Shown one piece after another: positions 1 through 64,000 of a stretch of 64,000 nucleotides of DNA. The stretch is from a phage. The DNA is taken from the sequence record PZ534534.1; one strand, 5' to 3'. Within the stretch, counting starts at the first letter, position 1, and each line of letters opens with the position of its first letter. Under the pieces are notes generated by a model that was given only the letters and a program-made list of their open reading frames with translations, made no database searches and was not told the origin of the DNA. Both the position numbers and the translations under genes were made by a program.

Positions 1-554
1 AAAAGATTGCAAAACGTTATCAGAATGAAGAACAGATGGAGAAAACTTTCAAGTGGAAGCCAGGTTTCCAGCGTAATCATTCTAACGCTCGTGATCGTAA
101 GCATCCGGATAAGTGGTTAACACCGCCAAATGATGGCATTCAGGTTGGTGATGAGAAGGAGCTGTCACCTGGAAAAGATGGCAACTACATTCGAACTAAG
201 GAAGCAGGTCCAAAGGATGACAGCTATCTTGTAGATAAGGTTCTTGACGGTGTTGATGTAGGTGTTGACACTGCACGAAACCTTTTTCTTGGTTGGTATC
301 GCACAGGGTTTTTCGACATCAAGGCTATTCGTCGTGTTTGTGATATTAAAAAGTCTGCCTACGATGATGATTCCCTACATCGCACTCTGAGACAATACTC
401 AGAGAGATACGGTCATCCAGTTATCACTCTTGACGATATTAACGAAGTGATGTATCATGTAGAGGTTGTTGCAGGCAGGTTCGGTGATGCATATCTCGGT
501 ATTCTTTCTGCAAAGGATGAGGTAATGTTAAATAAGATTTACTATGAACGCTGA
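1..554 (+). CDS. hypothetical protein, possibly 5'-partial
   Basis: ORF track 36..554; the reading frame stays open back to window position 3, so the true start may lie upstream of the window. Confidence 0.35.
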   Translation, partial: KIAKRYQNEEQMEKTFKWKPGFQRNHSNARDRKHPDKWLTPPNDGIQVGDEKELSPGKDGNYIRTKEAGPKDDSYLVDKVLDGVDVGVDTARNLFLGWYRTGFFDIKAIRRVCDIKKSAYDDDSLHRTLRQYSERYGHPVITLDDINEVMYHVEVVAGRFGDAYLGILSAKDEVMLNKIYYER

Positions 555-753
555 GGGGCTATTAATGAATAATCCGGTAGCAAAGAACTGTAATAAATTC
601 AACAAGTCTGCGATTCACACTGACAGGAAAAAGAGTTGGTTTCCTGACATTGACGAGGAGCTTGAGAGTTACTTTGAAGATTTAGTCACCAATGCAGAGG
701 AGGTTGCGATTAAAGAATACGCAGACAGGCGAGATAAGGCCGGAATCTGTTGA
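544..753 (+). CDS. hypothetical small protein
   Basis: 69-aa ORF with GAGGGG Shine-Dalgarno about 8 nt upstream; overlaps the previous stop. Confidence 0.4.
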   Translation: MNAEGLLMNNPVAKNCNKFNKSAIHTDRKKSWFPDIDEELESYFEDLVTNAEEVAIKEYADRRDKAGIC

Positions 754-778
754 CAAAAATAATGTTACCTGATAAGAT
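750..778 (+). promoter_or_regulatory. sigma70-like promoter (TTGACA-17-TAAGAT)
   Basis: Consensus -35 with 17-nt spacer, read directly from sequence. Confidence 0.5.
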
Positions 779-829
779 CTGCAATATGATGTGATACAAT
801 TTTAACTTACGAGGTCTACAGGTAATGCT

Positions 830-1072
830 ATGTTTAAGGTTAAGCTCGTTTTTCGTTCCATGAATGAGGATTATTTAGAAGATGAAGGTGAATTTCGTGC
901 ACTGGATGATGCAATAGATTTTGCCAACGACTTAGCTTGTATGAATACGGGTTATGGGCTATGCTGTTGGGATGGTGGTGTTCAGATCGGTGATAGCAAG
1001 ATCTTCTACTTCTACCCTGAGCCTGATAACAAACAAATTAAGTATGTTTTATTTATTTGTGCTTTACAATGA
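830..1072 (+). CDS. hypothetical small protein
   Basis: 80-aa ORF downstream of promoter at 750. Confidence 0.4.
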   Translation: MFKVKLVFRSMNEDYLEDEGEFRALDDAIDFANDLACMNTGYGLCCWDGGVQIGDSKIFYFYPEPDNKQIKYVLFICALQ

Positions 1073-1359
1073 GGTTGTTTTCGTGTATCATGATGAATAT
1101 CCAATTTAAAGATGAATTTGATGGCTTTATCTCCGGATGCTTTGAAACAGGGTTCGGAGAAGACTGAGTTCCCCTTAGAGGGCTTGATAGTGCACCACAC
1201 TTAAAATGGTAGGGGCAGCCAGCACATGACGATGTGACCCCAGCCAACCTGTAATAAGGTCGAGCCAAAGTGCGGTAATGGGCTCTGGTAACCCACTTGT
1301 TGGGTCTTGCTGGTCTAGGACGCTGGACAAGTCGCAGGGAATACCACCCTGCGGCGAAC

Positions 1360-1388
1360 TTGACAATCAGTATTTGCTATGATAAAAT
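1360..1388 (+). promoter_or_regulatory. sigma70-like promoter (TTGACA-17-TAAAAT)
   Basis: Perfect -35, 17-nt spacer, TAAAAT -10, about 28 nt upstream of the ATG at 1417. Confidence 0.6.
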
Positions 1389-1416
1389 CCACCTATCACG
1401 TGATAATGGAGGAAAC

Positions 1417-1755
1417 ATGGCGGATACAACTAAAAAGCGTCGCCGTAGAGGCAGACCTCTGAAAGAGGAGTCCAACGCCATTCAGCTAGAGAAGAACATC
1501 CTTGATATGAAGGAATCTTTTATAGCGATGGTTCCAGAAGCTCACAAAGTTTTAAGAGAGCTGATGTTGGACCCGAAAACCAAACAAAATATTCGTCAAA
1601 GCATTGCAGAGTATGTTCTTGATAAGGCAGACCGAATGCAGGAAGAATATGATGAGATGTTCGGTGAAGAGGAAGAGGTGGTAGTAGAAGAGGCTGAAAA
1701 ACCAGCACCTTTTATGCCATTTACCACAGAAATACAGCCTGTTGGCAATAGTTAA
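1417..1755 (+). CDS. hypothetical protein with basic N-terminus and acidic C-terminus
   Basis: ATG at 1417 preceded by GGAGGA; N-terminus KKRRRRGRP; the ORF-track start at 1297 lacks an RBS. Confidence 0.5.
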   Translation: MADTTKKRRRRGRPLKEESNAIQLEKNILDMKESFIAMVPEAHKVLRELMLDPKTKQNIRQSIAEYVLDKADRMQEEYDEMFGEEEEVVVEEAEKPAPFMPFTTEIQPVGNS

Positions 1756-1764
1756 AATATTTTC

Positions 1765-1793
1765 TTGACAAACTTTGCTTAACAGTGTAATAT
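1765..1793 (+). promoter_or_regulatory. sigma70-like promoter upstream of tRNA cluster (TTGACA-17-TAATAT)
   Basis: Consensus hexamers with 17-nt spacer about 60 nt before the first tRNA. Confidence 0.6.
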
Positions 1794-1851
1794 TGTAAAC
1801 ATGGTCTCCCACCTTTTCTGGCGGCTAAGGTGTAAAAGAAAGCCACCCAGT

Positions 1852-1926
1852 GCCCTGTTAGCTTAGTGGATAAAGCAGCGGCCTTCTAAGCCGTTGACAC
1901 TGGTTCGAGTCCAGTACGGGGTGCCA
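1852..1926 (+). tRNA. tRNA-Arg (anticodon TCT)
   Basis: Cloverleaf folded by hand: acceptor GCCCTGT/ACGGGGT, anticodon loop CTTCTAA, T-loop TTCGAGT, CCA encoded. Confidence 0.8.
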
Positions 1927-1930
1927 AATT

Positions 1931-2017
1931 GGGGAGTTATCCCGTAGAGGTAGCGGTGTAGACTGTAAATCTATTGTCATTGCGACTCGGGTGGTTCGAC
2001 TCCACCACTCCCCACCA
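1931..2017 (+). tRNA. tRNA-Tyr (anticodon GTA), long variable arm
   Basis: Acceptor GGGGAGT/ACTCCCC, anticodon loop CTGTAAA, variable arm and T-arm GGTGG-TTCGACT-CCACC; layout matches bacterial tRNA-Tyr. Confidence 0.8.
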
Positions 2018-2131
2018 AATTTACATTTTTAAATGCATAAATCATACAGATAATGGCATTGATATTTATCGTCGTTTATACTAGTCACTAACTGCTCGAA
2101 AATCAGTGTCATTATCAGTATTGTTTATAAA

Positions 2132-2222
2132 TGAGGGTAGGGAGCAATGGTGCTCAAGCGGTCTTGAAAACCGTCCCGTTGAGGATGACTCGATGATGGT
2201 TCGATTCCATTACCCTCAGCCA
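2132..2222 (+). tRNA. tRNA-Ser (anticodon TGA), long variable arm
   Basis: Acceptor TGAGGGT/ACCCTCA, anticodon loop CTTGAAA, long variable arm, T-loop TTCGATT, discriminator G plus CCA. Confidence 0.7.
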
Positions 2223-2320
2223 TATTGTTGACCTTGTAATTAAGCGAAAGCCGGAAGCAGAACCGGATTATCAAATGTTACAGTCGTCATCGCCGACTAG
2301 CAACATGGTCAACATACTGA

Positions 2321-2417
2321 GCTAGGTAAGCCCTTTGGCAAGGGCGAGGATTTTTAATCCTGAAAATAGACGAGGTAGTCGTTGAATACATAGGTGGTTC
2401 GATTCCATCACCTAGCA
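2321..2417 (+). tRNA. atypical tRNA-like gene, anticodon loop TTTTTAA (UUU, Lys-like) with about 30-nt variable region
   Basis: Perfect 7-bp acceptor GCTAGGT/ACCTAGC, D-arm GCCC-TTTGGCAA-GGGC, T-arm GGTGG-TTCGATT-CCATC; anticodon arm imperfect; CCA not encoded. Confidence 0.45.
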
Positions 2418-2424
2418 CCTTTTT

Positions 2425-2500
2425 GCTGATGTAGCACAATTGGTAGTGCAATTGATTTGTAATCAATAGGTTGCAGGTTCGAGTCCTGCTATCAGCACCA
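2425..2500 (+). tRNA. tRNA-Thr (anticodon TGT)
   Basis: Acceptor GCTGATG/TATCAGC, anticodon stem ATTGA/TCAAT, loop TTTGTAA, T-arm GCAGG-TTCGAGT-CCTGC, CCA encoded. Confidence 0.8.
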
Positions 2501-2501
2501 T

Positions 2502-2576
2502 GGCCCTGTAGCTGGAAGGTTCAAGCAAGCGACTCATAATCGCCAGACGGTGGTTCAATTCCACCCAGGGCCACCA
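2502..2576 (+). tRNA. tRNA with CAT anticodon (Met, fMet or Ile-lysidine)
   Basis: Acceptor GGCCCTG/CAGGGCC, anticodon loop CTCATAA, T-arm GGTGG-TTCAATT-CCACC, CCA encoded. Confidence 0.8.
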
Positions 2577-2587
2577 AATAATAAATA

Positions 2588-2664
2588 CTCCGCGTAGCTC
2601 AGCTTGGTAGAGCGCCTGATTTGGGATCAGGAGGTCGAGTGTTCGAATCACTCCGTGGAGACCA
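2588..2664 (+). tRNA. tRNA-Pro (anticodon TGG)
   Basis: Acceptor CTCCGCG/CGTGGAG, D-arm TAGCTCAGCTTGGTAGAGC, anticodon stem CCTGA/TCAGG, loop TTTGGGA, T-loop TTCGAAT, CCA encoded. Confidence 0.85.
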
Positions 2665-2710
2665 CTTTCAGTTATACTTTAAACATATACAAACAAAAGG
2701 AACCTTTAAA

Positions 2711-2980
2711 ATGTATACACTTAAAATTGTAGAGCGTGTAAATCCAACCCATACTGTAGATTTTCGTGACGATTTCAATCCTCTGGCTGTAAATCTTCGA
2801 GAGTCATATCATGAACTCAGCTGCGATGCAGTGGTGGTCTTTTTTGAAGACAACTCTGAAGGGGCAGTAGCTTGTGTTGTTGATAGTGAGCAGAAGTTTT
2901 ATATTTACAGAGATGTAGATGCATACTTGATGAATGAAAATGCAGTTACTGTTAGAATCATCCACCGAGTGCCTCGATAA
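2711..2980 (+). CDS. hypothetical protein
   Basis: ORF track 2621..2980 overlaps tRNA-Pro; internal ATG at 2711 with AAAGGA RBS taken as start. Confidence 0.45.
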   Translation: MYTLKIVERVNPTHTVDFRDDFNPLAVNLRESYHELSCDAVVVFFEDNSEGAVACVVDSEQKFYIYRDVDAYLMNENAVTVRIIHRVPR

Positions 2981-3032
2981 GTATTAGTCTCCTTTTAGTT
3001 AGTTTCGATCTATTTAGGTTACTCAATTTTAA

Positions 3033-3067
3033 CCCGCCCCGTTAGCTGCATAGCTGCGGGGTTTTTT
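3033..3067 (+). terminator. rho-independent terminator
   Basis: GC-rich hairpin (CCCGCCCC...GCGGGG) followed by TTTTTT. Confidence 0.55.
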
Positions 3068-3085
3068 CGTTTCTGGAGCCTTAAA

Positions 3086-3484
3086 ATGATTTCAGTTTTA
3101 ACATGGCTGAGTAGGTATAAAGGGATCATAAAAGGTTTAGTTTTTGCAGCTGCGATAGGTACAGCTTATCTTGGGGCCGTGTATTGGTTTAACTCCAAGC
3201 TTAATGATGCCTACCAGGAGGGTGTGTCAGCAACAGAGTTAAAGTGGGAACGGATCCTTGATCAGCAACAAAAGCAGGCCGACAAGATTAAAATGGGCCA
3301 CGCAGAGGAGGTTAAAAACCTTGAAAAATCTCTTTCTGATCTGCAGGATAAATTAAATATAGCTGAGAGGGCAGGTAAAGAAAAGCAGATTATTTACCTC
3401 CAATCACCTGAGGGTAAGAAGTCAACACTCCCTGATCAGCTTATAGATATTTATAATGAGAGTATTAATCAGGAGGGTCGATGA
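3086..3484 (+). CDS. inner-membrane spanin (i-spanin, Rz-like)
   Basis: N-terminal TM helix (GLVFAAAIGTAYLGAVYWF) followed by charged coiled-coil region; overlaps the lipoprotein gene by 4 nt. Confidence 0.65.
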   Translation: MISVLTWLSRYKGIIKGLVFAAAIGTAYLGAVYWFNSKLNDAYQEGVSATELKWERILDQQQKQADKIKMGHAEEVKNLEKSLSDLQDKLNIAERAGKEKQIIYLQSPEGKKSTLPDQLIDIYNESINQEGR

Positions 3485-3768
3485 GAGTTGCTGCACTGTT
3501 TATTGTGTGCTTGTTATTATGTGGGTGTGCAACCAGCGTTGAGAGAGAATACAAGATTGACCCTCCTGATGTAGGAAGGTTGATTGTTAAACCCCCGGAA
3601 GGTGCCATGAAACCACCTGCTAAAGCTATGCCTTTGAAGAAAGGTGCGCCAGATGCAGTGAATTCTGGCATTATGAGGGATAATAATCTGTCTTGTAGCA
3701 ATGATAGAGCTAAATTGATCATTTTGCAAGACTATATTAGAACACTGTTTCCAAAGGAGAGAGGTTAA
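3481..3768 (+). CDS. outer-membrane lipoprotein spanin (o-spanin, Rz1-like)
   Basis: Signal peptide with lipobox-like LLLCGC, Pro-rich 95-aa product; classic spanin gene pair arrangement. Confidence 0.65.
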   Translation: MRVAALFIVCLLLCGCATSVEREYKIDPPDVGRLIVKPPEGAMKPPAKAMPLKKGAPDAVNSGIMRDNNLSCSNDRAKLIILQDYIRTLFPKERG

Positions 3769-4193
3769 TGTCTAAGATTTACGGACCGTGTTCTGAAAAG
3801 CAGAAGATGATCCTTGAAAACGATGCAGATATTTTGGTAATCGGCGGTGCCGCAGGGTCTGGCAAGTCGTTCCTCTTGCAATTGATGCCACTTAAAATTA
3901 TTGATGACCCCCACAGCTCTGTGGTTATGTTCCGAAGAACAACCCCACAGTTGGAAGGTGAGGGTGGACTATGGCCTAAAGCAGTAGCTATTTATAGTGA
4001 TCTGCCTGAAAACATTAAGCCAAAGTTCAGAGAGAAGGATCATAAGTTCATTTTTCCACGGTTTGATCCGAACACCGGCAAGTGGGATAGAAGCAAAAAG
4101 GGAGCTGTTGTAAAATACTGCCACATGGAGTATGTACAAGATAAGCTTAACCATCAAGGGCTTGAGTATACCATGGTTTGCTTCGATGAGGGT
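3768..4193 (+). CDS. terL: terminase large subunit, exon 1 (ATPase Walker A GGAAGSGKS, Walker B MVCFDE)
   Basis: Walker A/B motifs typical of terminase ATPase domain; ORF ends with in-frame stop immediately after the predicted 5' splice site (GAGGGT|TAATT). Confidence 0.8.
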
Positions 4194-5076
4194 TAATTTG
4201 TAGCTCTCGTAAAACCTCCCTAATTGCGGGGAAATCTTTATTATTGACACCACCAACCTGTCATGGTAACATGATAGAGGCTTCGAAGAGAGATCGAAGG
4301 TATGGTAACAGTGTGTTAATTTAGATAATCCGCAGCGAAGCATCCGAGAGGATGAACGTTCAACGACTAGTCGAAAGACGTAGAATCAAGCGATTCGAAA
4401 CGGGAGGGTGAATGTGTAATACTAAAAAATGTATGGATTGCCAAAGAGTTCTACCTATTGATGATTTCTTTTTATCATCTAAGAGCAAGGATGGATACTC
4501 AGGTACATGCAAGGAATGCTATATGTACTACAGGAAGGGTGGATCTCGTAAAAACAAAAATATGGTTAAGAGAGATGACGCAGCATTGTTTATTCAAGAC
4601 TTGCTGAAGAAAGGTGAACTTTTTGAATGCAAATCTTGTCATGAAAGTATGCTCGCTGATAGTTTTTACACAAAACGTGACTATGGTAAAGTATATCTGG
4701 TTACGAACAGGTGTAAGATGTGTGAAAAGTTTTATCAGATTGAGAAGAAATTTCACATAACAAAAGATGAATACTATCGTCTACTCTCAGATCAAGATCA
4801 TAAGTGTGCCATTTGTAGAATATCCCTTGATGAGTATAGGACGCAAGGGTATAGAGATTTCTTTTGTGTTGATCATGACCATAAAACTGGTGCTGTAAGA
4901 GGGTTGCTTTGTGATAAATGCAACAGAGCTTTAGGTTTCTTCCAAGAGGATGAGGAAACTATTCTTAGAGCGGCAGAGTATTTACACATTCATAAGATAT
5001 AGTCTGGTCTGCATGGAGACATGCAGCTGCCTGAAAATGGCGGGGCAAGACTAGCGACCTTGCCCGAACATAAACG
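4194..5076 (+). mobile_element. group I intron 1 (td-like) in terminase gene, carrying an HNH endonuclease ORF
   Basis: Begins TAATTT after exon-terminal U; 3' core CTGCATGGAGACATGCAGCTG...GGCGGGGCAAGACTAGCGACCTTGCCCGAACATAAACG closely parallels the T4 td intron core as recalled from memory; exon reading frames are restored across it. Confidence 0.7.
4412..5002 (+). CDS. intron-encoded homing endonuclease, endonuclease VII-like HNH zinc-finger type
   Basis: Motif CAIC...VDHDHKTGAVRGLLCDKCNRALG matches the recombination endonuclease VII / HNH pattern; several CxxC pairs; own RBS GGGAGGG. Confidence 0.8.
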   Translation: MCNTKKCMDCQRVLPIDDFFLSSKSKDGYSGTCKECYMYYRKGGSRKNKNMVKRDDAALFIQDLLKKGELFECKSCHESMLADSFYTKRDYGKVYLVTNRCKMCEKFYQIEKKFHITKDEYYRLLSDQDHKCAICRISLDEYRTQGYRDFFCVDHDHKTGAVRGLLCDKCNRALGFFQEDEETILRAAEYLHIHKI

Positions 5077-5393
5077 ACACAATTCGAATGGGAGCAGATA
5101 GACTATCTGATGTCTCGTCTGCGATCTCAGTCAAAGTATCCATCAAGAATGGTTATCAGCTGTAACCCCGATTCAGAACACATGCTTGCCAAACTGGTTA
5201 GATGGTGGTTGGACGATGAAGGGTATCCAGATCCGGAGAAATGCGGTAAGAAAAGATATTTTATCCGACGCGACGGTGAATTTATCTGGGGAGACTCTAA
5301 AGAAGAGTTGATAGAGAAATACACCACGGTTAACGGACTGGGTGTTGAGATCAAGCCAAGACCGTTGTCATTCTCGTTTATAGGCGCAACCAT
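5077..5393 (+). CDS. terL: terminase large subunit, exon 2
   Basis: In-frame continuation (TQFEWEQIDYLMSRL...SFSFIGATI) with no RBS at the internal ATG (5110); boundaries inferred from frame conservation and td-like intron ends. Confidence 0.65.
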
Positions 5394-6372
5394 TAAATGA
5401 TAGTGGCTTCGTGCAGAAATGCACGTCGAATAACTTCGTTAATTGCTGGGAAATCCGATTGCTAAACGGACAATCAGCAGCTATAATTACCCTTCCGAAC
5501 CTGTAGTAGGGAGATGTTTGAAATGAAAAATTTAGGCTTTTTAGGCTACAATCATTATTGTGCTACATACGATGGCAGAATTTACAGTCTGTATTCTAAT
5601 AAATTCCTCCATCCTAATGTGCAGAAAAAGACTGGCTATGCTATGGTAACTTTGTGCGAGGACGGTAAAAAGTTCCAAGTGCTCGTTCACAGAGTGATTG
5701 CTATGACTTTTGTTGATAATGACAATCCCAGCGTGAAAACTCAAGTAAACCACCTAGATGGTAATAAGTTGAATAACGCCGCATGGAACCTTGAGTGGAC
5801 AACGCCTGAGGAAAACACACATCACGCTCATGAAATGGGACTTAAAAAGGACTATGTCAATAAATACAGGTCCCTGGATGATGCCACTGCTCTTGAAATA
5901 TGTAGGCTGTTAGAACAAGGCGCAAGGGTAAAAGACATTTGTGAAATGTTCGGTGTCAATCAACCACTTGTAAGTGGTATAAAGAATGGCTCAGTATACC
6001 CAGATATTTCTAAAGAGTTTAACTTTAGAAAAGTGCCAACCTCTAATCGGATAAGTGAGCACAAGATAATAGGTATCTGCGAGGATCTTAGTGATAAGGT
6101 CTTGTGTGTCAATAAAATAGCTAAGAAGTGGGGAGTAAGTTTTAGTGTTGTTAAAGGAATAAAAGACCGTAAGACTTACACCTATATTTCAAACAATTAC
6201 GATTGGTAATGTAGTTCAACGACTATCCCGAGAGGGAGTAGGGCGCAAGCTTATGGCGCTCGAAAAGCGAAGCACCCTGAAATGGGTGGTGATATAGTCT
6301 ACTCTGCATGGTAACATGCAGCAGCACGTAAAGGTGCGGAAGGTGGTGTTGCGACCACCTTTGAATATAAGG
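5394..6372 (+). mobile_element. group I intron 2 (td-like) in terminase gene, carrying an HNH endonuclease ORF
   Basis: 3' core ACGACTATCCC...GGGAGTAGGG...GATATAGTCTACTCTGCATGGTAACATGCAGCAG plus P9-like hairpin AAGGTGGTgttgcgACCACCTT; the exon-3 frame opens only 2 nt before the predicted 3' splice site. Confidence 0.7.
5514..6209 (+). CDS. intron-encoded HNH homing endonuclease with C-terminal HTH
   Basis: Motifs VHRVIAMTFV...VNHLDGNKLNN...NLEWTTPEEN are the canonical HNH endonuclease signature seen in phage homing endonucleases. Confidence 0.85.
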   Translation: MFEMKNLGFLGYNHYCATYDGRIYSLYSNKFLHPNVQKKTGYAMVTLCEDGKKFQVLVHRVIAMTFVDNDNPSVKTQVNHLDGNKLNNAAWNLEWTTPEENTHHAHEMGLKKDYVNKYRSLDDATALEICRLLEQGARVKDICEMFGVNQPLVSGIKNGSVYPDISKEFNFRKVPTSNRISEHKIIGICEDLSDKVLCVNKIAKKWGVSFSVVKGIKDRKTYTYISNNYDW

Positions 6373-7177
6373 ATTCGATAATCCTGTCTGCCTGAGAGAT
6401 AACCCAGAATACCTTGCTTTCCTTGAAGGTCTACCAGAGCTGGAAAAAGCTCAGCTTCTCCATGGTAACTGGTTTGCAAAGCCTGAGGGTGCAAACTATT
6501 TTCAAAGATCTTTCCTTCGTGATGCCGATAGAGTACCTCTTGGGTCAGTATCTTGCAGGGCATGGGATAAGGCAGGAACCGAGAGAACTTCCGGTAATAA
6601 ATTTCCTGACTTTACTGCCAGTATTAAGGTAAGTAAAGATAGCGACGGCTTTTATTACCTGTCCGGTGATTATTGTCCTGAGAACGTGGATGACGGGAGG
6701 TATTCCACAGGTCTGGAAGGCAAGTTCTGTAAAAAGGCTGGTGAACGAGATGTGATCATCAGGAAACAGGCGCAGTTCGATGGTGATGATTGCATAATCG
6801 TCTTCTCTGTGGACCCAGGGCAGGCAGGTAAGAGTGAGTTCTTAACCTCCTCCAGATCCTTGCTTGCCGAAGGGTTCAGGGTTGAAGAAGACCCAATGCC
6901 TTCCAACAAGTCTAAACTGACAAGGTTCTCACCTTTTGCCAATCTTGCCCAACAAGGAATGGTGAGGATTGTAAAATCCAGTTTCCATCCTGATACTCTG
7001 GAAGCATTTCTGACTGAACTTGAAAAATTCAACGGGGAAAGATCAACATTTAACAGAAAAGACGACTGGGCCGACTGCGTAGCTTCTGCGATTAATTTCC
7101 TGGAGAAAGAGGAGGTAGCACTTCCTTGTGTGATTCCATCAATCTCATCACCTTCTATGTTCAAGCGTTTTATCTAA
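6373..7177 (+). CDS. terL: terminase large subunit, exon 3 (nuclease domain)
   Basis: DNPEYLAFLEG...LHGNWF... motif block typical of the terminase C-terminal nuclease domain; frame matches exons 1+2 for a total of about 515 aa. Confidence 0.75.
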
Positions 7178-7180
7178 GTG

Positions 7181-7209
7181 TTGCCAATCTTAATTAGATG
7201 TGGTACAAT
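7181..7209 (+). promoter_or_regulatory. sigma70-like promoter (TTGCCA-17-TACAAT)
   Basis: Hexamers with 17-nt spacer upstream of the portal gene. Confidence 0.5.
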
Positions 7210-7277
7210 AAAGTAATTGGAGATACTAGCCCTCTGACGAGGGCTATTTTGTTATACTGTTTTGAGGGGTAAAGCTT

Positions 7278-8834
7278 GTGTCCAAAAAGAACCGCAGGAA
7301 ACACAACGCCACAGCCAAAACTGTGAATAAATCTGGGAACGCAGGCGCACCAACTCATAATGTTCGTATGAGTGAGATCGGTTCTGGCGCACTTTCCCAA
7401 ATTATGGCAGAATCGCAATCTATGATGGTTGAGGAATTGCGTTGGCCTCAGCTGATTGCCACAGTGGAGACTATGAAATGTGATTCCACAGTTGCTACTG
7501 CCTTAGATACAAAATATGTTTTCATCACGAAAGCATTCAATGATTTTAAGATCCTTTATAATGTTAAAAGTGAAGACTCTAAGAAAGCTGCCGAGCTTAT
7601 AGAGTATTCTTTGCGTAATTTGGCAAACCAACAAACTCTTCGAGATATTGCAAGAAGCGCAGCTACCTTTAACGAGTATGGTTTTTCACTGTTTGAGAAA
7701 GTATACCGCAGAGAGAAAGAAGGTAAATATGCCGGGATGCTTCTTATTGATAAAATTGCATTCCGACCTCAGGCCAGCCTGTCCAGATCAGAGCCGTTTG
7801 TTTTTGACAAGAATAGTAGAACACTGACAGGTATTTATCAGTCACCTAATGCATTTCTAAACACTCAGAATGCACGCTGGGCTGGACCTCTTGCTGCAAT
7901 GCCTTCAAAAGGCTTTAATGAGCCTGAAATTTTCATCCCTGCTAAAAAGCTTATGCTCATGACCCTGTCAGGAACAGAATCTAACCCTGCAGGTGTGTCA
8001 CCGATGATAGGTTGCTACAGATCTTTCCGTGAGAAAGTTCTGATTGAAAACCTTGAGGTTGTTGGCTGTTCCAAAGACCTTGGTGGCGTGCTTGAGCTGA
8101 AAATTCCTTCCAATATTTTGAACAAGGCCAGCATTGACCCGAATTCAATGGAAGGGAGAATGGTTGCAGACCTTATGCTTGACGCAGCAAACGCCCATAG
8201 TGGTGAGCAAAGTTTCTTTATACTTCCGTCTGATAGAGATAAGTCTGGTAAAGAGCTTTACTCCATGACCCTGAAGGGGGTTGATGGTATGGGTAAGCAG
8301 TATTCGACTAAAGATTTGATTGATGCCCGTAAGAAGGCGATTCTTGACCGTTTCGGTGCTGGCTTTATTAACCTCGGTAACGATAACGTTGGATCCTTCT
8401 CTCTGTCTGAGTCAAAACAGTCTATCCATGGTCATTTTGTTCAGCGTGATATAGATATTATCACTGAAGCCTTCAATAAGGATCTTATTCCACAGCTTCT
8501 GGCATTGAATGGTATCATCCTTGAAGATGATGATATGCCTAAACTGAAACCTGGTCTGATTGAAGAGGTGGACATGGAGAGCTTCTCCAAATTTGTCCAG
8601 AGGATCGGTGCTGTAGGTTACTTGCCAAAAACTCCTGCAGTAATTAATAAGATTCTTGAAGTAGGCGGGTTTGATGAAAGATTTGACGAGGACATGGATC
8701 AGGAAGAGCTGATGAAGCTCTTGGGCCAGGACATCAGTAGGGCTGGTGATGGAATGGCTGCAGGATCCACTGGTAACGGCACTTCTAAGATGTCATCAAC
8801 CAGAGATAATTCCATATCCAACATGGAAAATTAA
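7278..8834 (+). CDS. portal protein (putative)
   Basis: 518-aa protein immediately downstream of the terminase, conserved portal position and size; GTG start with GAGGGG RBS. Confidence 0.65.
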   Translation: MSKKNRRKHNATAKTVNKSGNAGAPTHNVRMSEIGSGALSQIMAESQSMMVEELRWPQLIATVETMKCDSTVATALDTKYVFITKAFNDFKILYNVKSEDSKKAAELIEYSLRNLANQQTLRDIARSAATFNEYGFSLFEKVYRREKEGKYAGMLLIDKIAFRPQASLSRSEPFVFDKNSRTLTGIYQSPNAFLNTQNARWAGPLAAMPSKGFNEPEIFIPAKKLMLMTLSGTESNPAGVSPMIGCYRSFREKVLIENLEVVGCSKDLGGVLELKIPSNILNKASIDPNSMEGRMVADLMLDAANAHSGEQSFFILPSDRDKSGKELYSMTLKGVDGMGKQYSTKDLIDARKKAILDRFGAGFINLGNDNVGSFSLSESKQSIHGHFVQRDIDIITEAFNKDLIPQLLALNGIILEDDDMPKLKPGLIEEVDMESFSKFVQRIGAVGYLPKTPAVINKILEVGGFDERFDEDMDQEELMKLLGQDISRAGDGMAAGSTGNGTSKMSSTRDNSISNMEN

Positions 8835-8901
8835 AAATTATCAACACAGGGGGTTGCAAAACCTCCTTTGGCGTGATAAAATAATCCACATGGGGAATAA
8901 G

Positions 8902-9321
8902 ATGCCACAGGAAGAAATGATTTCCTACGAAATCATCTACGAGCCTGACACTAAAGATGCTCACGGTGAGTGGATGAGTAAAGACACCATCAAAAAGGCT
9001 AAAGATAACTGGGACGCAGCATACGCCGCAGGCCTAGTTTCTGAAAACCTTTTTCACTTGACCTCTACAGATGCTTTCACTATTGAAAAGACGTGGATTC
9101 AAGAAGAGTTTGATGTTGTAGTAATTGGCACTGAGCAGGTCATCAAGGCTGGCTCTTGGGTTGCTAAAGTTAAATACAATAATCCTGAACTATGGGAAGC
9201 TAAGAAGGCTGGCATTGTTGGTGGCCTAAGCATTCAGGCAACAGGTAATGTTGATGAAGAAACTGGTGAAATTACCAACGTAAACTTCGGAATCAGTGTT
9301 GTAGAAGAGGGCAATGAATAA
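8902..9321 (+). CDS. hypothetical head morphogenesis protein
   Basis: About 139-aa ORF between portal and scaffold; start codon uncertain (ORF track 8746). Confidence 0.35.
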   Translation: MPQEEMISYEIIYEPDTKDAHGEWMSKDTIKKAKDNWDAAYAAGLVSENLFHLTSTDAFTIEKTWIQEEFDVVVIGTEQVIKAGSWVAKVKYNNPELWEAKKAGIVGGLSIQATGNVDEETGEITNVNFGISVVEEGNE

Positions 9322-42522: not shown

Positions 42523-42837
42523 GTGGAGTTGGATTTGGCGGCATTGTACGGTATCTGCATGGGTACCGTTGTCCCGATCTGTGTATGGGCTTTCAACCAG
42601 TGGCACACCAAATGGAAAGGCATTTCCAAGAGGTTGGATGAGCTGGAGAAAGACCTCATCTTAGTGAAAAACAGTATGGTTACAAAAGATAGACTTGATT
42701 CCGTTATCGAGACTCGGTTAAGCAAGCTAGAGGCCGATATTAACGACCTTAAGCAGGATGTCAGGACAGATGTCTCCGGCATCCGAGCTGATGTACAAAA
42801 GATTTTGCACATGCTCGTAGAGCATAGTAAAAGGTAA
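42523..42837 (+). CDS. small membrane protein (single TM helix plus coiled coil) embedded in the fibre locus
   Basis: GTG start with AAGAGGAGG RBS; TM segment LAALYGICMGTVVPICVWAF; own terminator downstream. Confidence 0.5.
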   Translation: MELDLAALYGICMGTVVPICVWAFNQWHTKWKGISKRLDELEKDLILVKNSMVTKDRLDSVIETRLSKLEADINDLKQDVRTDVSGIRADVQKILHMLVEHSKR

Positions 42838-43981: not shown

Positions 43982-44248
43982 ATGAAACTAACTCAGTTTT
44001 TATGGGGACTGGTTGCGGCATCTGATGACCCTACGAAAGTGTCCCAATCTAAGCTATGGTCGAACATAGGCATGGCGGTGATGACTGGGGGGTTTATTCA
44101 TATGGGGGATAATGATACGCTTCCTGAATGGTATGCGTGGATATACGCGCCTTCAGTAGCTTGCCCCCAGCTTATTAGCAAATTCATCTCGCTCCGGTGG
44201 GGTTGCCAGCACCCTGACCACGTTAAAAACGAAGAGCAAAAAGCTTAA
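43982..44248 (+). CDS. hypothetical small protein downstream of fibre paralogue B
   Basis: 88 aa with hydrophobic N-terminal segment; occupies the position where a fibre chaperone would be expected but lacks the Tfa signature. Confidence 0.35.
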   Translation: MKLTQFLWGLVAASDDPTKVSQSKLWSNIGMAVMTGGFIHMGDNDTLPEWYAWIYAPSVACPQLISKFISLRWGCQHPDHVKNEEQKA

Positions 44249-62604: not shown

Positions 62605-62628
62605 CCCCCGCTTCGGCGGGGATTTTCT
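62605..62628 (+). terminator. rho-independent terminator (CGCTTCGGCG family)
   Basis: Hairpin CCCCCGCttcgGCGGGG followed by ATTTTCTATTT. Confidence 0.65.
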
Positions 62629-62641
62629 ATTTGGAGTCATT

Positions 62642-63142
62642 GTGAAAATTAAGATCTTTGCTATTATTTTGAGCGCACTTTTATCGCTGCCTGTTGTTGC
62701 AGCACCAAAACAAAAAGTATATCATACTTGCAAGCCATCAGATACTAAGGAAAACATTCTGGCATGCAATATCTACAGGGAAGCTAGAGGAGATGGCACG
62801 ATGGGTATGCTGGCATCTGGGTTTGCCACACTAAACAGGAAATCCCACCCTAAATACCCAGACACTATAAGAAAGATTGTCTACCAACCTAACCAGTTTT
62901 CGTGGACAAACCACGGCAAAACTTTTAAGGTGACAGAAAAAGATTCATGGGATCACGCTAAAAGTCTTGCAAAGATGCTTCTAAAGGTCTATAATAACAA
63001 CCATGTTGCATACATGGCTATGGACATAACAGGTGGAGCAACACACTACCATACAACCAAAGTACGACCGAAATGGGCAAAAAAGATGCAGAGGACAGCT
63101 CAATTCGGGAGCCATATCTACTACAAGGAGCGCAATAAATGA
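62642..63142 (+). CDS. secreted cell-wall hydrolase, SleB-like (putative endolysin)
   Basis: N-terminal signal peptide (MKIKIFAIILSALLSLPVVAAP); block CNIYREARGDG...ATLNRKSHPKYPDTIRKIVYQPNQFSW matches the SleB-type cell-wall hydrolase signature. Confidence 0.65.
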   Translation: MKIKIFAIILSALLSLPVVAAPKQKVYHTCKPSDTKENILACNIYREARGDGTMGMLASGFATLNRKSHPKYPDTIRKIVYQPNQFSWTNHGKTFKVTEKDSWDHAKSLAKMLLKVYNNNHVAYMAMDITGGATHYHTTKVRPKWAKKMQRTAQFGSHIYYKERNK

Positions 63143-64000
63143 TTGTAAACAGTAATGAAACTAAAGCGGTACTAACCGGGAATATGGAGGTCACCAGGGG
63201 CTCAATTTCTCTGAACAAAGAGACTTTTGGGCTAATCATTAAAGGGATTTACGAAGATAAGGTGCTGGCAAGCTGCCGTGAACCAATCTTCAATGCCGTG
63301 GACTCCCATGTTGAGTCTGGACGGGGTGATGTACCGATCATTATTCACTCTCCTACAGACCTTGAACCATACTTCTTTGTGCAGGACGTTGGATTGGGCA
63401 TGTCAGAAGAGATGGTCCGCAACACTTTCATGAATCTCGGGGAGTCAACCAAGCGCAACAGCAACGCTCTGGTAGGTAATAAAGGTGTTGGTTCAAAGGC
63501 TCCGTTCAGTATGGTGGACACTTTCGATGTTATCAGTGTGCACAATGGTGTTGAAAGCACATATCTATTGTTCTTGGATCAGGGTATCCCAAACGTTACC
63601 AAGATCCGTGAGCGGAAGACTGAAGAGCACAACGGGGTAAAAGTTCAGTTCCATGTTAAGAAAGAGCATGTCCTGAAATATCGCACTGCTATTGCGTCAT
63701 GCCTACGCTATGCAAAGTTTCCGTTTACCGTTACCGACCCTATGACCAGTAAGATGCTGGAAGGTGATAAGGTTGAGGCGCAGTATCACTACGAGAAGGA
63801 TGGTTGGAAAATGACCATCCTGAAAGGTTATACCAGCTCTGATGAGAGCCGTGTGGTGATGGGACACCAACCTTACCGCTCTAAGTTTCTGGAAACATTG
63901 ACAGACTACCCTGCAATCTGTGTAGAGATCCCTATCGGGGATTGCAATATTAACCCTGGGCGCGAATGGACCATAGAGGGGCACGACGATGGTGGATTCC
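63139..64000 (+). CDS. rIIA-like protein with GHKL-type ATPase motifs, 3'-partial (runs off window)
   Basis: Hand-translated ORF absent from ORF track (no stop in window); motifs EPIFNAVDS (N-box), DVGLGM (G1), GNKGVGSKAPF (G2). Confidence 0.5.
   Translation, partial: MIVNSNETKAVLTGNMEVTRGSISLNKETFGLIIKGIYEDKVLASCREPIFNAVDSHVESGRGDVPIIIHSPTDLEPYFFVQDVGLGMSEEMVRNTFMNLGESTKRNSNALVGNKGVGSKAPFSMVDTFDVISVHNGVESTYLLFLDQGIPNVTKIRERKTEEHNGVKVQFHVKKEHVLKYRTAIASCLRYAKFPFTVTDPMTSKMLEGDKVEAQYHYEKDGWKMTILKGYTSSDESRVVMGHQPYRSKFLETLTDYPAICVEIPIGDCNINPGREWTIEGHDDGGF

Follow-up and report, generated by a model that had tools for sequence, protein, structure and literature searches.

Dispersed lysis genes in an rV5-like Escherichia phage, with a spanin pair abutting the large terminase gene

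Dispersed lysis genes are textbook knowledge for T4. Comparable layouts have been described in phages closer to the one considered here: in CB7 (CB7_252/253), rV5 and PVP-SE1 the spanin genes adjoin the large terminase gene, outside any lysis cassette (PMC7344957), and SP6 and VP4 have also been cited for a similar spanin arrangement. The spanin census (PMC6139136) includes the rV5 pair, and a separate lysin and a putative holin have been described for the same phage (PMC3606486). Kropinski 2013 names the gp085 lysozyme as the rV5 lysin and proposes as holin a remote protein with two transmembrane domains (ORF 129), "as in phage T4" (PMC3606486). For LL12, one endolysin (gp90) was annotated along with the spanins gp66/gp65, and no holin could be identified (PMC6658697). 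Every element discussed below is therefore already in print (Kropinski 2013; Kongari 2018; LL12 2019; Buttimer 2020); the dispersed layout has been published for rV5, LL12, CB7 and PVP-SE1, and the finding as stated changes little. Cocktails for biocontrol and therapy make wide use of rV5-like phages, and a signal-peptide-bearing Hydrolase_2 protein has been conserved from the Vequintavirinae to T5.

The window analysed here is a stretch of 64,000 nucleotides (sequence record PZ534534.1). Its source is an rV5-like Escherichia phage of the genus Vequintavirus: positions 2600-7400 are 98.4% identical over their whole length to Escherichia phage vB_EcoM_HdK5 and 98% identical to many further rV5-like phages of this genus, and the window corresponds approximately to positions 640-64,640 of rV5, in reverse complement. 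The RefSeq annotation of rV5 and the HdK5 annotation around the matching region served as annotated proxies. A first-pass annotation of the window had described the lysis functions as dispersed, with spanin genes next to the terminase gene and a secreted SleB-like hydrolase, in a different transcription unit, as the only recognisable muralytic enzyme. This was right as an observation and incomplete as an interpretation. The spanin pair, its overlap with the terminase gene and the dispersal all stand, while the role of the SleB-like protein as sole muralytic enzyme does not hold for this type of genome; the layout is an ordinary one that has already been published.

The spanin genes and the large terminase gene

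The spanin genes and the hairpin that precedes them were located as follows.

3036-3067, + strand: terminator-like hairpin followed by a U6 run, found by consensus scan (RNA fold -16.9 kcal/mol, z -2.97), with a putative terminator function
3086-3484, + strand: i-spanin (Rz-like), 132 aa; PHROG 4297, membrane helix, orthologue of rV5 gp068
3481-3768, + strand: o-spanin (Rz1-like), outer-membrane lipoprotein precursor, 95 aa; PHROG 1267, lipobox, orthologue of rV5 gp067

Both spanin assignments were recovered by PHROG search, the i-spanin ORF matching phrog_4297 (E 4.2e-49) and the o-spanin ORF phrog_1267 (E 1.3e-22), each labelled "Rz-like spanin". The two proteins are identical to rV5 gp068 at 127/132 positions and to rV5 gp067 at 94/95 positions, respectively, and RefSeq gives both of these the label "Rz-like spanin". 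As sequence matches, these family assignments and identities are far above chance level.

The two genes share 4 nt, ATGA, the i-spanin reading frame ending ...GGT CGA TGA with the next ATG inside. The o-spanin gene in turn ends in a TAA (3766-3768) whose last A is the A of the large terminase ATG at 3768 (TAATG; ...AGA GGT TAA TG). Purine-rich, Shine-Dalgarno-like runs precede both downstream starts, GGAGGG in the case of the o-spanin and AAGGAGAGAGG in the case of large terminase exon 1. The pair thus lies directly 5' of the terminase gene with overlapping stop and start codons, as the first-pass annotation had proposed. Since PMC6139136 still classes an 8-bp overlap as separated, the 4-nt overlap places this spanin pair in the "separated" architectural class, as in T4.

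The other neighbours of the spanin genes are a small protein of PHROG 8729 and tRNA genes, seven of which lie upstream at 1852-2664. No holin or endolysin family (Pfam, PHROG) was matched by any ORF tested in positions 1-9000, in agreement with the earlier statement that neither function is encoded nearby, and no contiguous lambda-type cassette (holin-endolysin-spanin) is present at the spanin locus. It is in this sense that the lysis genes are dispersed.

The terminator-like hairpin ends 19 nt 5' of the i-spanin ATG, and no sigma-70-like site was found between the hairpin and the i-spanin gene, so that the spanins and the large terminase (TerL) are probably transcribed by read-through of the hairpin. 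The T4-type late-promoter motif TATAAATA was not enriched (3 matches versus 2.4 expected), and none of its matches was usefully placed. The motif CATAACCACAC, which flanks the HdK5 lysozyme gene, had no relevant match within the window.

Hydropathy analysis of the i-spanin gives one hydrophobic segment only, at residues 14-32 (best 19-aa window, KD 1.80), and the protein lacks cysteine; one N-terminal transmembrane helix with type II topology is predicted. In the AF2 single-sequence model (pLDDT 73.5), a helix covering residues 12-101, and therefore taking in the hydrophobic segment, is followed by a linker and a second helix at 115-130, with low confidence for linker residues 106-112. The model suggests, with moderate confidence, a largely alpha-helical periplasmic domain of two helices and a linker, which is the usual i-spanin layout.

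The o-spanin N-terminus reads MRVAALFIVCLLLCGC followed by ATS, with the lipobox LCGC at 13-16 (L13-C14-G15-C16). With Ala, and not Asp, at position +2 of this lipobox, the protein is predicted to be an outer-membrane lipoprotein, in a rule-based reading of the N-terminus; the lipobox expected of an o-spanin is thus in place. A lipobox is also kept, as LVGC, in the Seunavirus homologue. From Cys16 the mature protein has 80 aa, of which nine are proline, and one further cysteine (C72); it is short and proline-rich, as expected of an o-spanin. Through C72 the pair also follows the rule of at least one periplasmic cysteine, which is true of 507/528 spanin systems (PMC6139136).

A small terminase was considered for the two ORFs before TerL and was ruled out by the membrane helix, the lipobox and the spanin PHROG matches. 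For annotation, this means that in rV5-like phages the two genes preceding TerL are spanin genes and not a small terminase gene.

The large terminase gene itself is split, and was mapped as follows.

3768-4193, + strand: large terminase exon 1; Pfam Terminase_6N and PHROG 9526 (E 4.6e-76)
4194-5076, + strand: TerL group I intron 1, with an endonuclease VII-type homing endonuclease ORF at 4412-5002 (Rfam, Pfam)
5077-5394, + strand: large terminase exon 2 (tblastn; PHROG 979)
5395-6373, + strand: TerL intron 2, with an HNH homing endonuclease ORF at 5514-6209 (Rfam, Pfam HNH_3, PHROG 59)
6374-7177, + strand: large terminase exon 3, nuclease domain (Pfam Terminase_6C; PHROG 9453; tblastn)

These exon limits are approximate, as they were set by tblastn with an uninterrupted Seunavirus TerL. 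Intron 1 was detected as Rfam Intron_gpI at 4184-5026 with 48.5 bits, just under the gathering score of 50, and its ORF matched Pfam Endonuclease_7 (E 2e-21). Intron 2 was detected as Intron_gpI at 6083-6321 with 35.7 bits, also under the gathering score. Terminase introns have been described previously (PMC6658697; PMC3606486). In rV5 the inter-exon gap matching intron 1 is only about 319 nt, and the endonuclease VII ORF present in the window is absent.

A probable lambda-type lysozyme beyond the window, and holin candidates

The enzyme that would remove the cell wall at lysis is most probably encoded about 7 kb beyond the window edge. In rV5 (gp085) and HdK5 (HdK5_00161) we found a 156-aa lysozyme with no N-terminal hydrophobic, signal or SAR segment. 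Its top PDB match, end to end, is 1AM7 ("LYSOZYME"; E 3.4e-56), which we take to be lambda R. In HdK5 the gene is on the opposite strand, 10,060 bp upstream of where the i-spanin gene starts, approximately at window coordinates -7444 to -6974. Because the gene falls outside the window, it was missed by the first-pass annotation. Of the 115 phage records that contain it, about 110 belong to the rV5-like group; 119 records contain the spanin pair. Judging from these relatives, the lysozyme gene is probably present in this isolate too. An enzyme with a reported 98% identity to the rV5 lysozyme, LysECP26, was active after purification: it lysed Gram-negative cells with a permeabilised outer membrane (PMC9728275). 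We assume that LL12 gp90 is the same lysozyme as rV5 gp085. RefSeq and the PHROGs apply the name "endolysin" to two different proteins, of which the lambda-type enzyme alone is backed by biochemical data.

The presence of this enzyme bears on the mechanism. It had been suggested that a secreted endolysin could imply holin-independent or pinholin-type lysis. No such mechanism is needed, given that the relatives carry a cytoplasmic lysozyme of the lambda R type and that a soluble cytoplasmic endolysin would call for a hole-forming holin.

The gene next to the lysozyme encodes a 68-aa protein with a signal-peptide-like N-terminus, which appears to be secreted rather than holin-like. Of a canonical holin-endolysin cassette elsewhere in the genome, the endolysin is thus found in rV5 and HdK5, but its neighbour does not look like a holin. 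When the holin search was widened beyond the spanin locus, none of ten small membrane proteins taken from an rV5-wide scan matched a PHROG holin family. Among the ten were the protein encoded next to the lysozyme (68 aa), the products of window ORFs 42523-42837 and 43982-44248, and gp124, Kropinski's candidate with two transmembrane domains. Besides gp124 and window ORF 42523-42837, rV5 gp178 and gp086 and the small membrane proteins of Seunavirus and Certrevirus are holin candidates.

The SleB-like hydrolase and the proposed course of lysis

At the other end of the window, a second type of predicted muralytic enzyme was mapped next to the rIIA gene.

62606-62631, + strand: GC hairpin with a UUCG loop and a T-rich run behind it, some 10 nt ahead of the SleB-like start, found by scan (fold -14.0 kcal/mol, z -1.86, weak)
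62642-63142, + strand: SleB-like (Hydrolase_2, PF07486) peptidoglycan hydrolase, predicted to be secreted, 166 aa, homologue of rV5 gp002
63139-64000, + strand: 5' part of rIIA (rV5 gp001), running off the window; its ATG overlaps the SleB-like stop

The protein matches the full PF07486 profile (70.4 bits against a cut-off of 27; E 2.1e-19) as well as the SleB structures 4F55 and 4FET (Bacillus SleB catalytic domain). Y45-x-E47-x-R49 is invariant across six phage homologues. Within the YRE-ARG motif, E47 lines up with a Glu that is the catalytic residue of SleB, the one of YGESRGE in 4F55 and 4FET. The AF2 single-sequence model of the protein (pLDDT 47) was too low in confidence for use.

The N-terminus reads MKIKIFAIILSALLSLPVVA followed by AP, and residues 3-21 are hydrophobic. 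An n-region MKIK, an h-region of 16-17 residues rich in L, I and F, and a V-V-A followed by A-P that fits the -3/-1 rule are the features of an export signal. By manual reading, this N-terminus looks like a cleavable Sec signal peptide and not like a Gly/Ala-rich SAR anchor, which bears out the signal peptide of the first-pass annotation. The signal-like segment is kept in the homologues from Seunavirus, Mydovirus, a Certrevirus-like phage, a phi92-like phage and T5 (T5.083), and a signal-peptide SleB-like protein has been described by Buttimer 2020 (PMC7344957).

Within the window, the SleB-like protein does appear to be the only recognisable muralytic enzyme, as a search of ten large proteins of tail and baseplate gave no other muralytic Pfam domain; in this type of genome it is not, as rV5 and HdK5 carry the lysozyme of the lambda R type. 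Its stop overlaps the rIIA start in an ATGA (63139-63142). The gene belongs to a proposed transcription unit, 10-1-238-164, together with rIIB, helicase, primase and DNA polymerase (PMC3606486), and this company of replication genes suggests early or middle expression.

We consider it probable, taking the reading as a whole, that lysis in this phage depends on a spanin operon of the separated type and on a lysozyme of the lambda R type, encoded outside the window, as the lysis enzyme, with the SleB-like hydrolase as an accessory. The N-terminal helix of the i-spanin would hold it in the inner membrane, with its helical domain reaching into the periplasm, and the o-spanin, carrying lipid on Cys16, would be directed to the outer membrane and reside in its inner leaflet. 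As lambda Rz/Rz1 and T4 PseT.3/PseT.2 suggest by analogy, the pair would bridge the periplasm and fuse or disrupt the outer membrane after removal of the peptidoglycan. The spanin genes head the packaging/structural block, which is presumed to be late, and are translationally coupled to each other (ATGA) and to TerL (TAATG); from this position and coupling, the spanins should be made with the packaging and virion proteins and wait harmlessly until lysis. Removal of the wall would most probably be the work of the cytoplasmic lysozyme whose gene lies some 10 kb upstream of the spanin genes, released by a putative holin. The SleB-like hydrolase would then serve as an accessory muralytic enzyme in the periplasm. 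It would be translated together with rIIA/rIIB, and it is conserved throughout the Vequintavirinae and in phages outside them, including T5.

That the SleB-like protein is itself the true endolysin, exported by Sec, with lysis either holin-independent or triggered by a depolarising pinholin, seems to us improbable, even if a good number of observations agree with it. The conserved Glu motif, a signal peptide kept in six lineages and the label "endolysin" of PHROG 938, to which the protein belongs, all fit such a role, as does its standing as a core gene, conserved in each genus of the Vequintavirinae, while the other type of lysin changes from genus to genus (lambda-type in Vequintavirus, M15-type peptidase in CB7 and Septuagintavirus). 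Expression of the CB7 homologue reportedly had a toxic effect, with the data not shown in that paper (PMC7344957), and no holin was identified in LL12 of this genus (PMC6658697). Moreover, in NINP13076, DP and POP18 an ORF for a membrane protein of 51-62 aa directly follows the SleB-like gene. The sister groups with this small ORF are Seunavirus, Mydovirus and the Certrevirus-like phages, and in the first two it lies directly upstream of rIIA/rIIB. These products have one clear hydrophobic segment each by hydropathy scan, with a second, weaker one by eye; their PHROG labels are "unknown" or "membrane protein", and the one of Certrevirus has been proposed as a class II holin (Buttimer 2020, PMC7344957). 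The conservation, the toxicity in CB7 and the small membrane ORF of the sister groups are compatible with a real role in lysis. Such a partner is missing from the window, however, where the SleB-like stop runs straight into rIIA, and tblastn against the window, rV5 and the part of HdK5 used here gave no homologue (best E 0.37), as did BLASTP of the small ORF against rV5 gp124 (E 0.27). Further, nearly all genomes of the genus carry a complete cytoplasmic endolysin of the lambda R type, and an enzyme nearly identical to the rV5 lysozyme is active in vitro (PMC9728275); it is because the relatives carry the lysozyme and LysECP26 is active that the SleB-like hydrolase is more probably an accessory than the primary endolysin. 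Early expression, as predicted from an operon shared with rIIA/rIIB and the replication genes, and T5, which keeps a signal-peptide homologue (T5.083) although its endolysin, an L-alanyl-D-glutamate peptidase, is a different enzyme (PMC7344957), argue in the same direction.

Two further readings share much of this evidence. The SleB-like enzyme might act as a co-lysin, pre-loading the periplasm and becoming effective on depolarisation, as is reportedly the case for the Sec-exported Lys44 of phage fOg44, while the lambda-type lysozyme exits through holin holes. All the points in favour of a SleB-like endolysin apply here too, and the two genes coexist in almost every genome of the genus; a Phapecoctavirus phage (Stephanstirmvirinae) has likewise been reported with both Phage_lysozyme and Hydrolase_2 proteins (PMC10793346). 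We nevertheless regard this arrangement as doubtful, since redundancy leaves the linkage to rIIA/rIIB, rather than to late genes, unexplained. Also unlikely, in our view, is that the SleB-like protein is no redundant lysin but a conserved second muralytic system, core to every Vequintavirinae genus amid repeated swaps of the "classical" endolysin, and derived from an ancestral Sec-endolysin/pinholin-like pair or serving a wall remodelling tied to rII, of which Vequintavirus lost the membrane partner, the hydrolase becoming translationally fused to rIIA. The preferred reading, with an accessory hydrolase, accommodates the overlap of its stop with the rIIA start, its place in a unit of replication genes and the T5 homologue that persists beside a different endolysin.

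Comparison with known systems

The muralytic enzymes have close counterparts. The lysozyme of rV5 and HdK5 differs from lambda R/1AM7 and from LysECP26 in that it is not flanked by a recognisable holin. The SleB-like protein belongs to Pfam Hydrolase_2, as do Bacillus SleB (4F55, 4FET), CB7_83 and T5.083, and the phage members have the signal peptide in common. Unlike Bacillus SleB, the window protein has no peptidoglycan-binding domain and is predicted to be secreted into a Gram-negative periplasm, and its substrate cannot be the muramic lactam of spore cortex.

For the spanins, the nearest relatives are rV5 gp068/gp067 (ORF 67/66), the "rv5" spanin families of Kongari 2018 (PMC6139136), which are orthologues found at the same site before an intron-split TerL and show no difference of substance from the window pair. 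The T4 pair PseT.3/PseT.2 is likewise separated, with a stop/start overlap, and unlinked to the holin and endolysin genes; as in the window, the T4 i-spanin lacks cysteine and the capacity for disulfide formation resides in the o-spanin, which has two periplasmic cysteines in T4 but one here. The T4 pair does not lie beside the terminase gene, whereas the window pair does, and the likeness is one of architecture and not of a shown sequence relationship. Lambda Rz/Rz1 have the same predicted topology, an inner-membrane type II protein with an outer-membrane lipoprotein, and the same predicted function in the final step of lysis. The lambda genes, however, are embedded and form part of a contiguous S-R-Rz/Rz1 cassette, while the window spanins are separate genes that lie, in the relatives, about 10 kb from the endolysin gene.

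Finally, in the Seunavirus phage KE22 the pair lacks a periplasmic cysteine, where the window o-spanin has C72, and a 33-codon ORF is annotated in the KE22 record between the o-spanin gene and TerL. The spanin-TerL neighbourhood is kept in KE22 with an o-spanin only about 40% identical to that of the window, and this points to an old association of the spanin genes with the large terminase gene.

Small proteins screened as holin candidates

The small proteins screened as holin candidates include the three below, one of them encoded outside the window in the lambda-type lysozyme region of a relative (stretch L004).

L004 9687-9893, - strand: 68-aa protein adjoining the lambda-type lysozyme (rV5 gp086)
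Window 42523-42837: 104-aa protein (rV5 gp031; PHROG 5345, labelled function unknown)
Window 43982-44248: 88-aa protein (PHROG 1322, "membrane protein")

The rV5 annotation of gp086, a member of PHROG 4641 (labelled function unknown), notes a transmembrane domain. The 68-aa protein has an N-terminal hydrophobic stretch ending in VFA|GE, with two cysteines in the C-terminal 45 aa. It resembles a small periplasmic protein, either secreted or tethered to the membrane, and not a typical holin; possibly it regulates lysis. The two genes of the window are flanked by tail-fibre genes, and neither product matched a holin family. The 104-aa protein carries a membrane helix at its N-terminus, and on visual inspection the remainder resembles a coiled coil.

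Lysis genes in related phages

In three sister phages an ORF for a membrane protein of 51-62 aa was found directly 3' of the SleB-like gene, which encodes a secreted Hydrolase_2 enzyme. Positions are those of stretches L005 (NINP13076), L009 (DP) and L008 (POP18).

3452-3625: NINP13076 (Seunavirus)
3452-3607: DP (Mydovirus)
3423-3611: POP18 (Certrevirus-like)

These ORFs encode one clear and a second, weaker hydrophobic segment, PHROG lists them as "membrane protein" or "unknown", and in NINP13076 and DP they are followed by rIIA. The ORF is not annotated in the DP record; no equivalent was found in the window or in rV5. The SleB-like CDS of Klebsiella phage DP lacks its N-terminus because it is annotated from 3064; an alternative upstream start at 2917 (ORF 2917-3447) gives back a signal peptide like those of the homologues.

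The spanin pair of Seunavirus KE22 (3600-4288 of its stretch, L010) keeps the lipobox LVGC, and a periplasmic cysteine is missing from both subunits; KE22 therefore belongs among the rare spanin systems lacking disulfide capacity. Among the relatives, about 18 GenBank records (MG0656xx) titled "Campylobacter phage", with C. jejuni given as host, are ~98% identical to the E. coli rV5-like phage of the window, and this host attribution looks doubtful.

Hairpins, a tRNA-like gene and the split terminase gene

GC-rich hairpins followed by T-runs lie ~10-20 nt ahead of the start codons of the spanin pair (3036-3067) and of the SleB-like gene (62606-62631). The rV5 and HdK5 annotations show no terminator at either hairpin; both could attenuate expression of the downstream genes. 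Between tRNA-Ser and tRNA-Thr, at 2321-2419 (99 nt), ARAGORN predicted a tRNA-like gene whose anticodon has four bases (atcc); its Rfam tRNA score is only 35.5 bits. Its counterpart is annotated as "tRNA-OTHER" in HdK5 and is not annotated in rV5.

The large terminase gene (TerL, 3768-7177) is made up of three exons separated by two intervening sequences, each with a homing endonuclease ORF.

About 3768-4193: exon 1
4412-5002: EndoVII-type ORF, first intervening sequence
About 5077-5394: exon 2
5514-6209: HNH ORF, second intervening sequence
About 6374-7177: exon 3

The intervening sequences matched group I introns at 48.5 and 35.7 bits, both below the gathering score of 50. Terminase introns as such are already in print. 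The HNH ORF appears to be missing in other relatives, and the first gap of rV5 TerL is only ~319 nt, without the EndoVII ORF that the window has.
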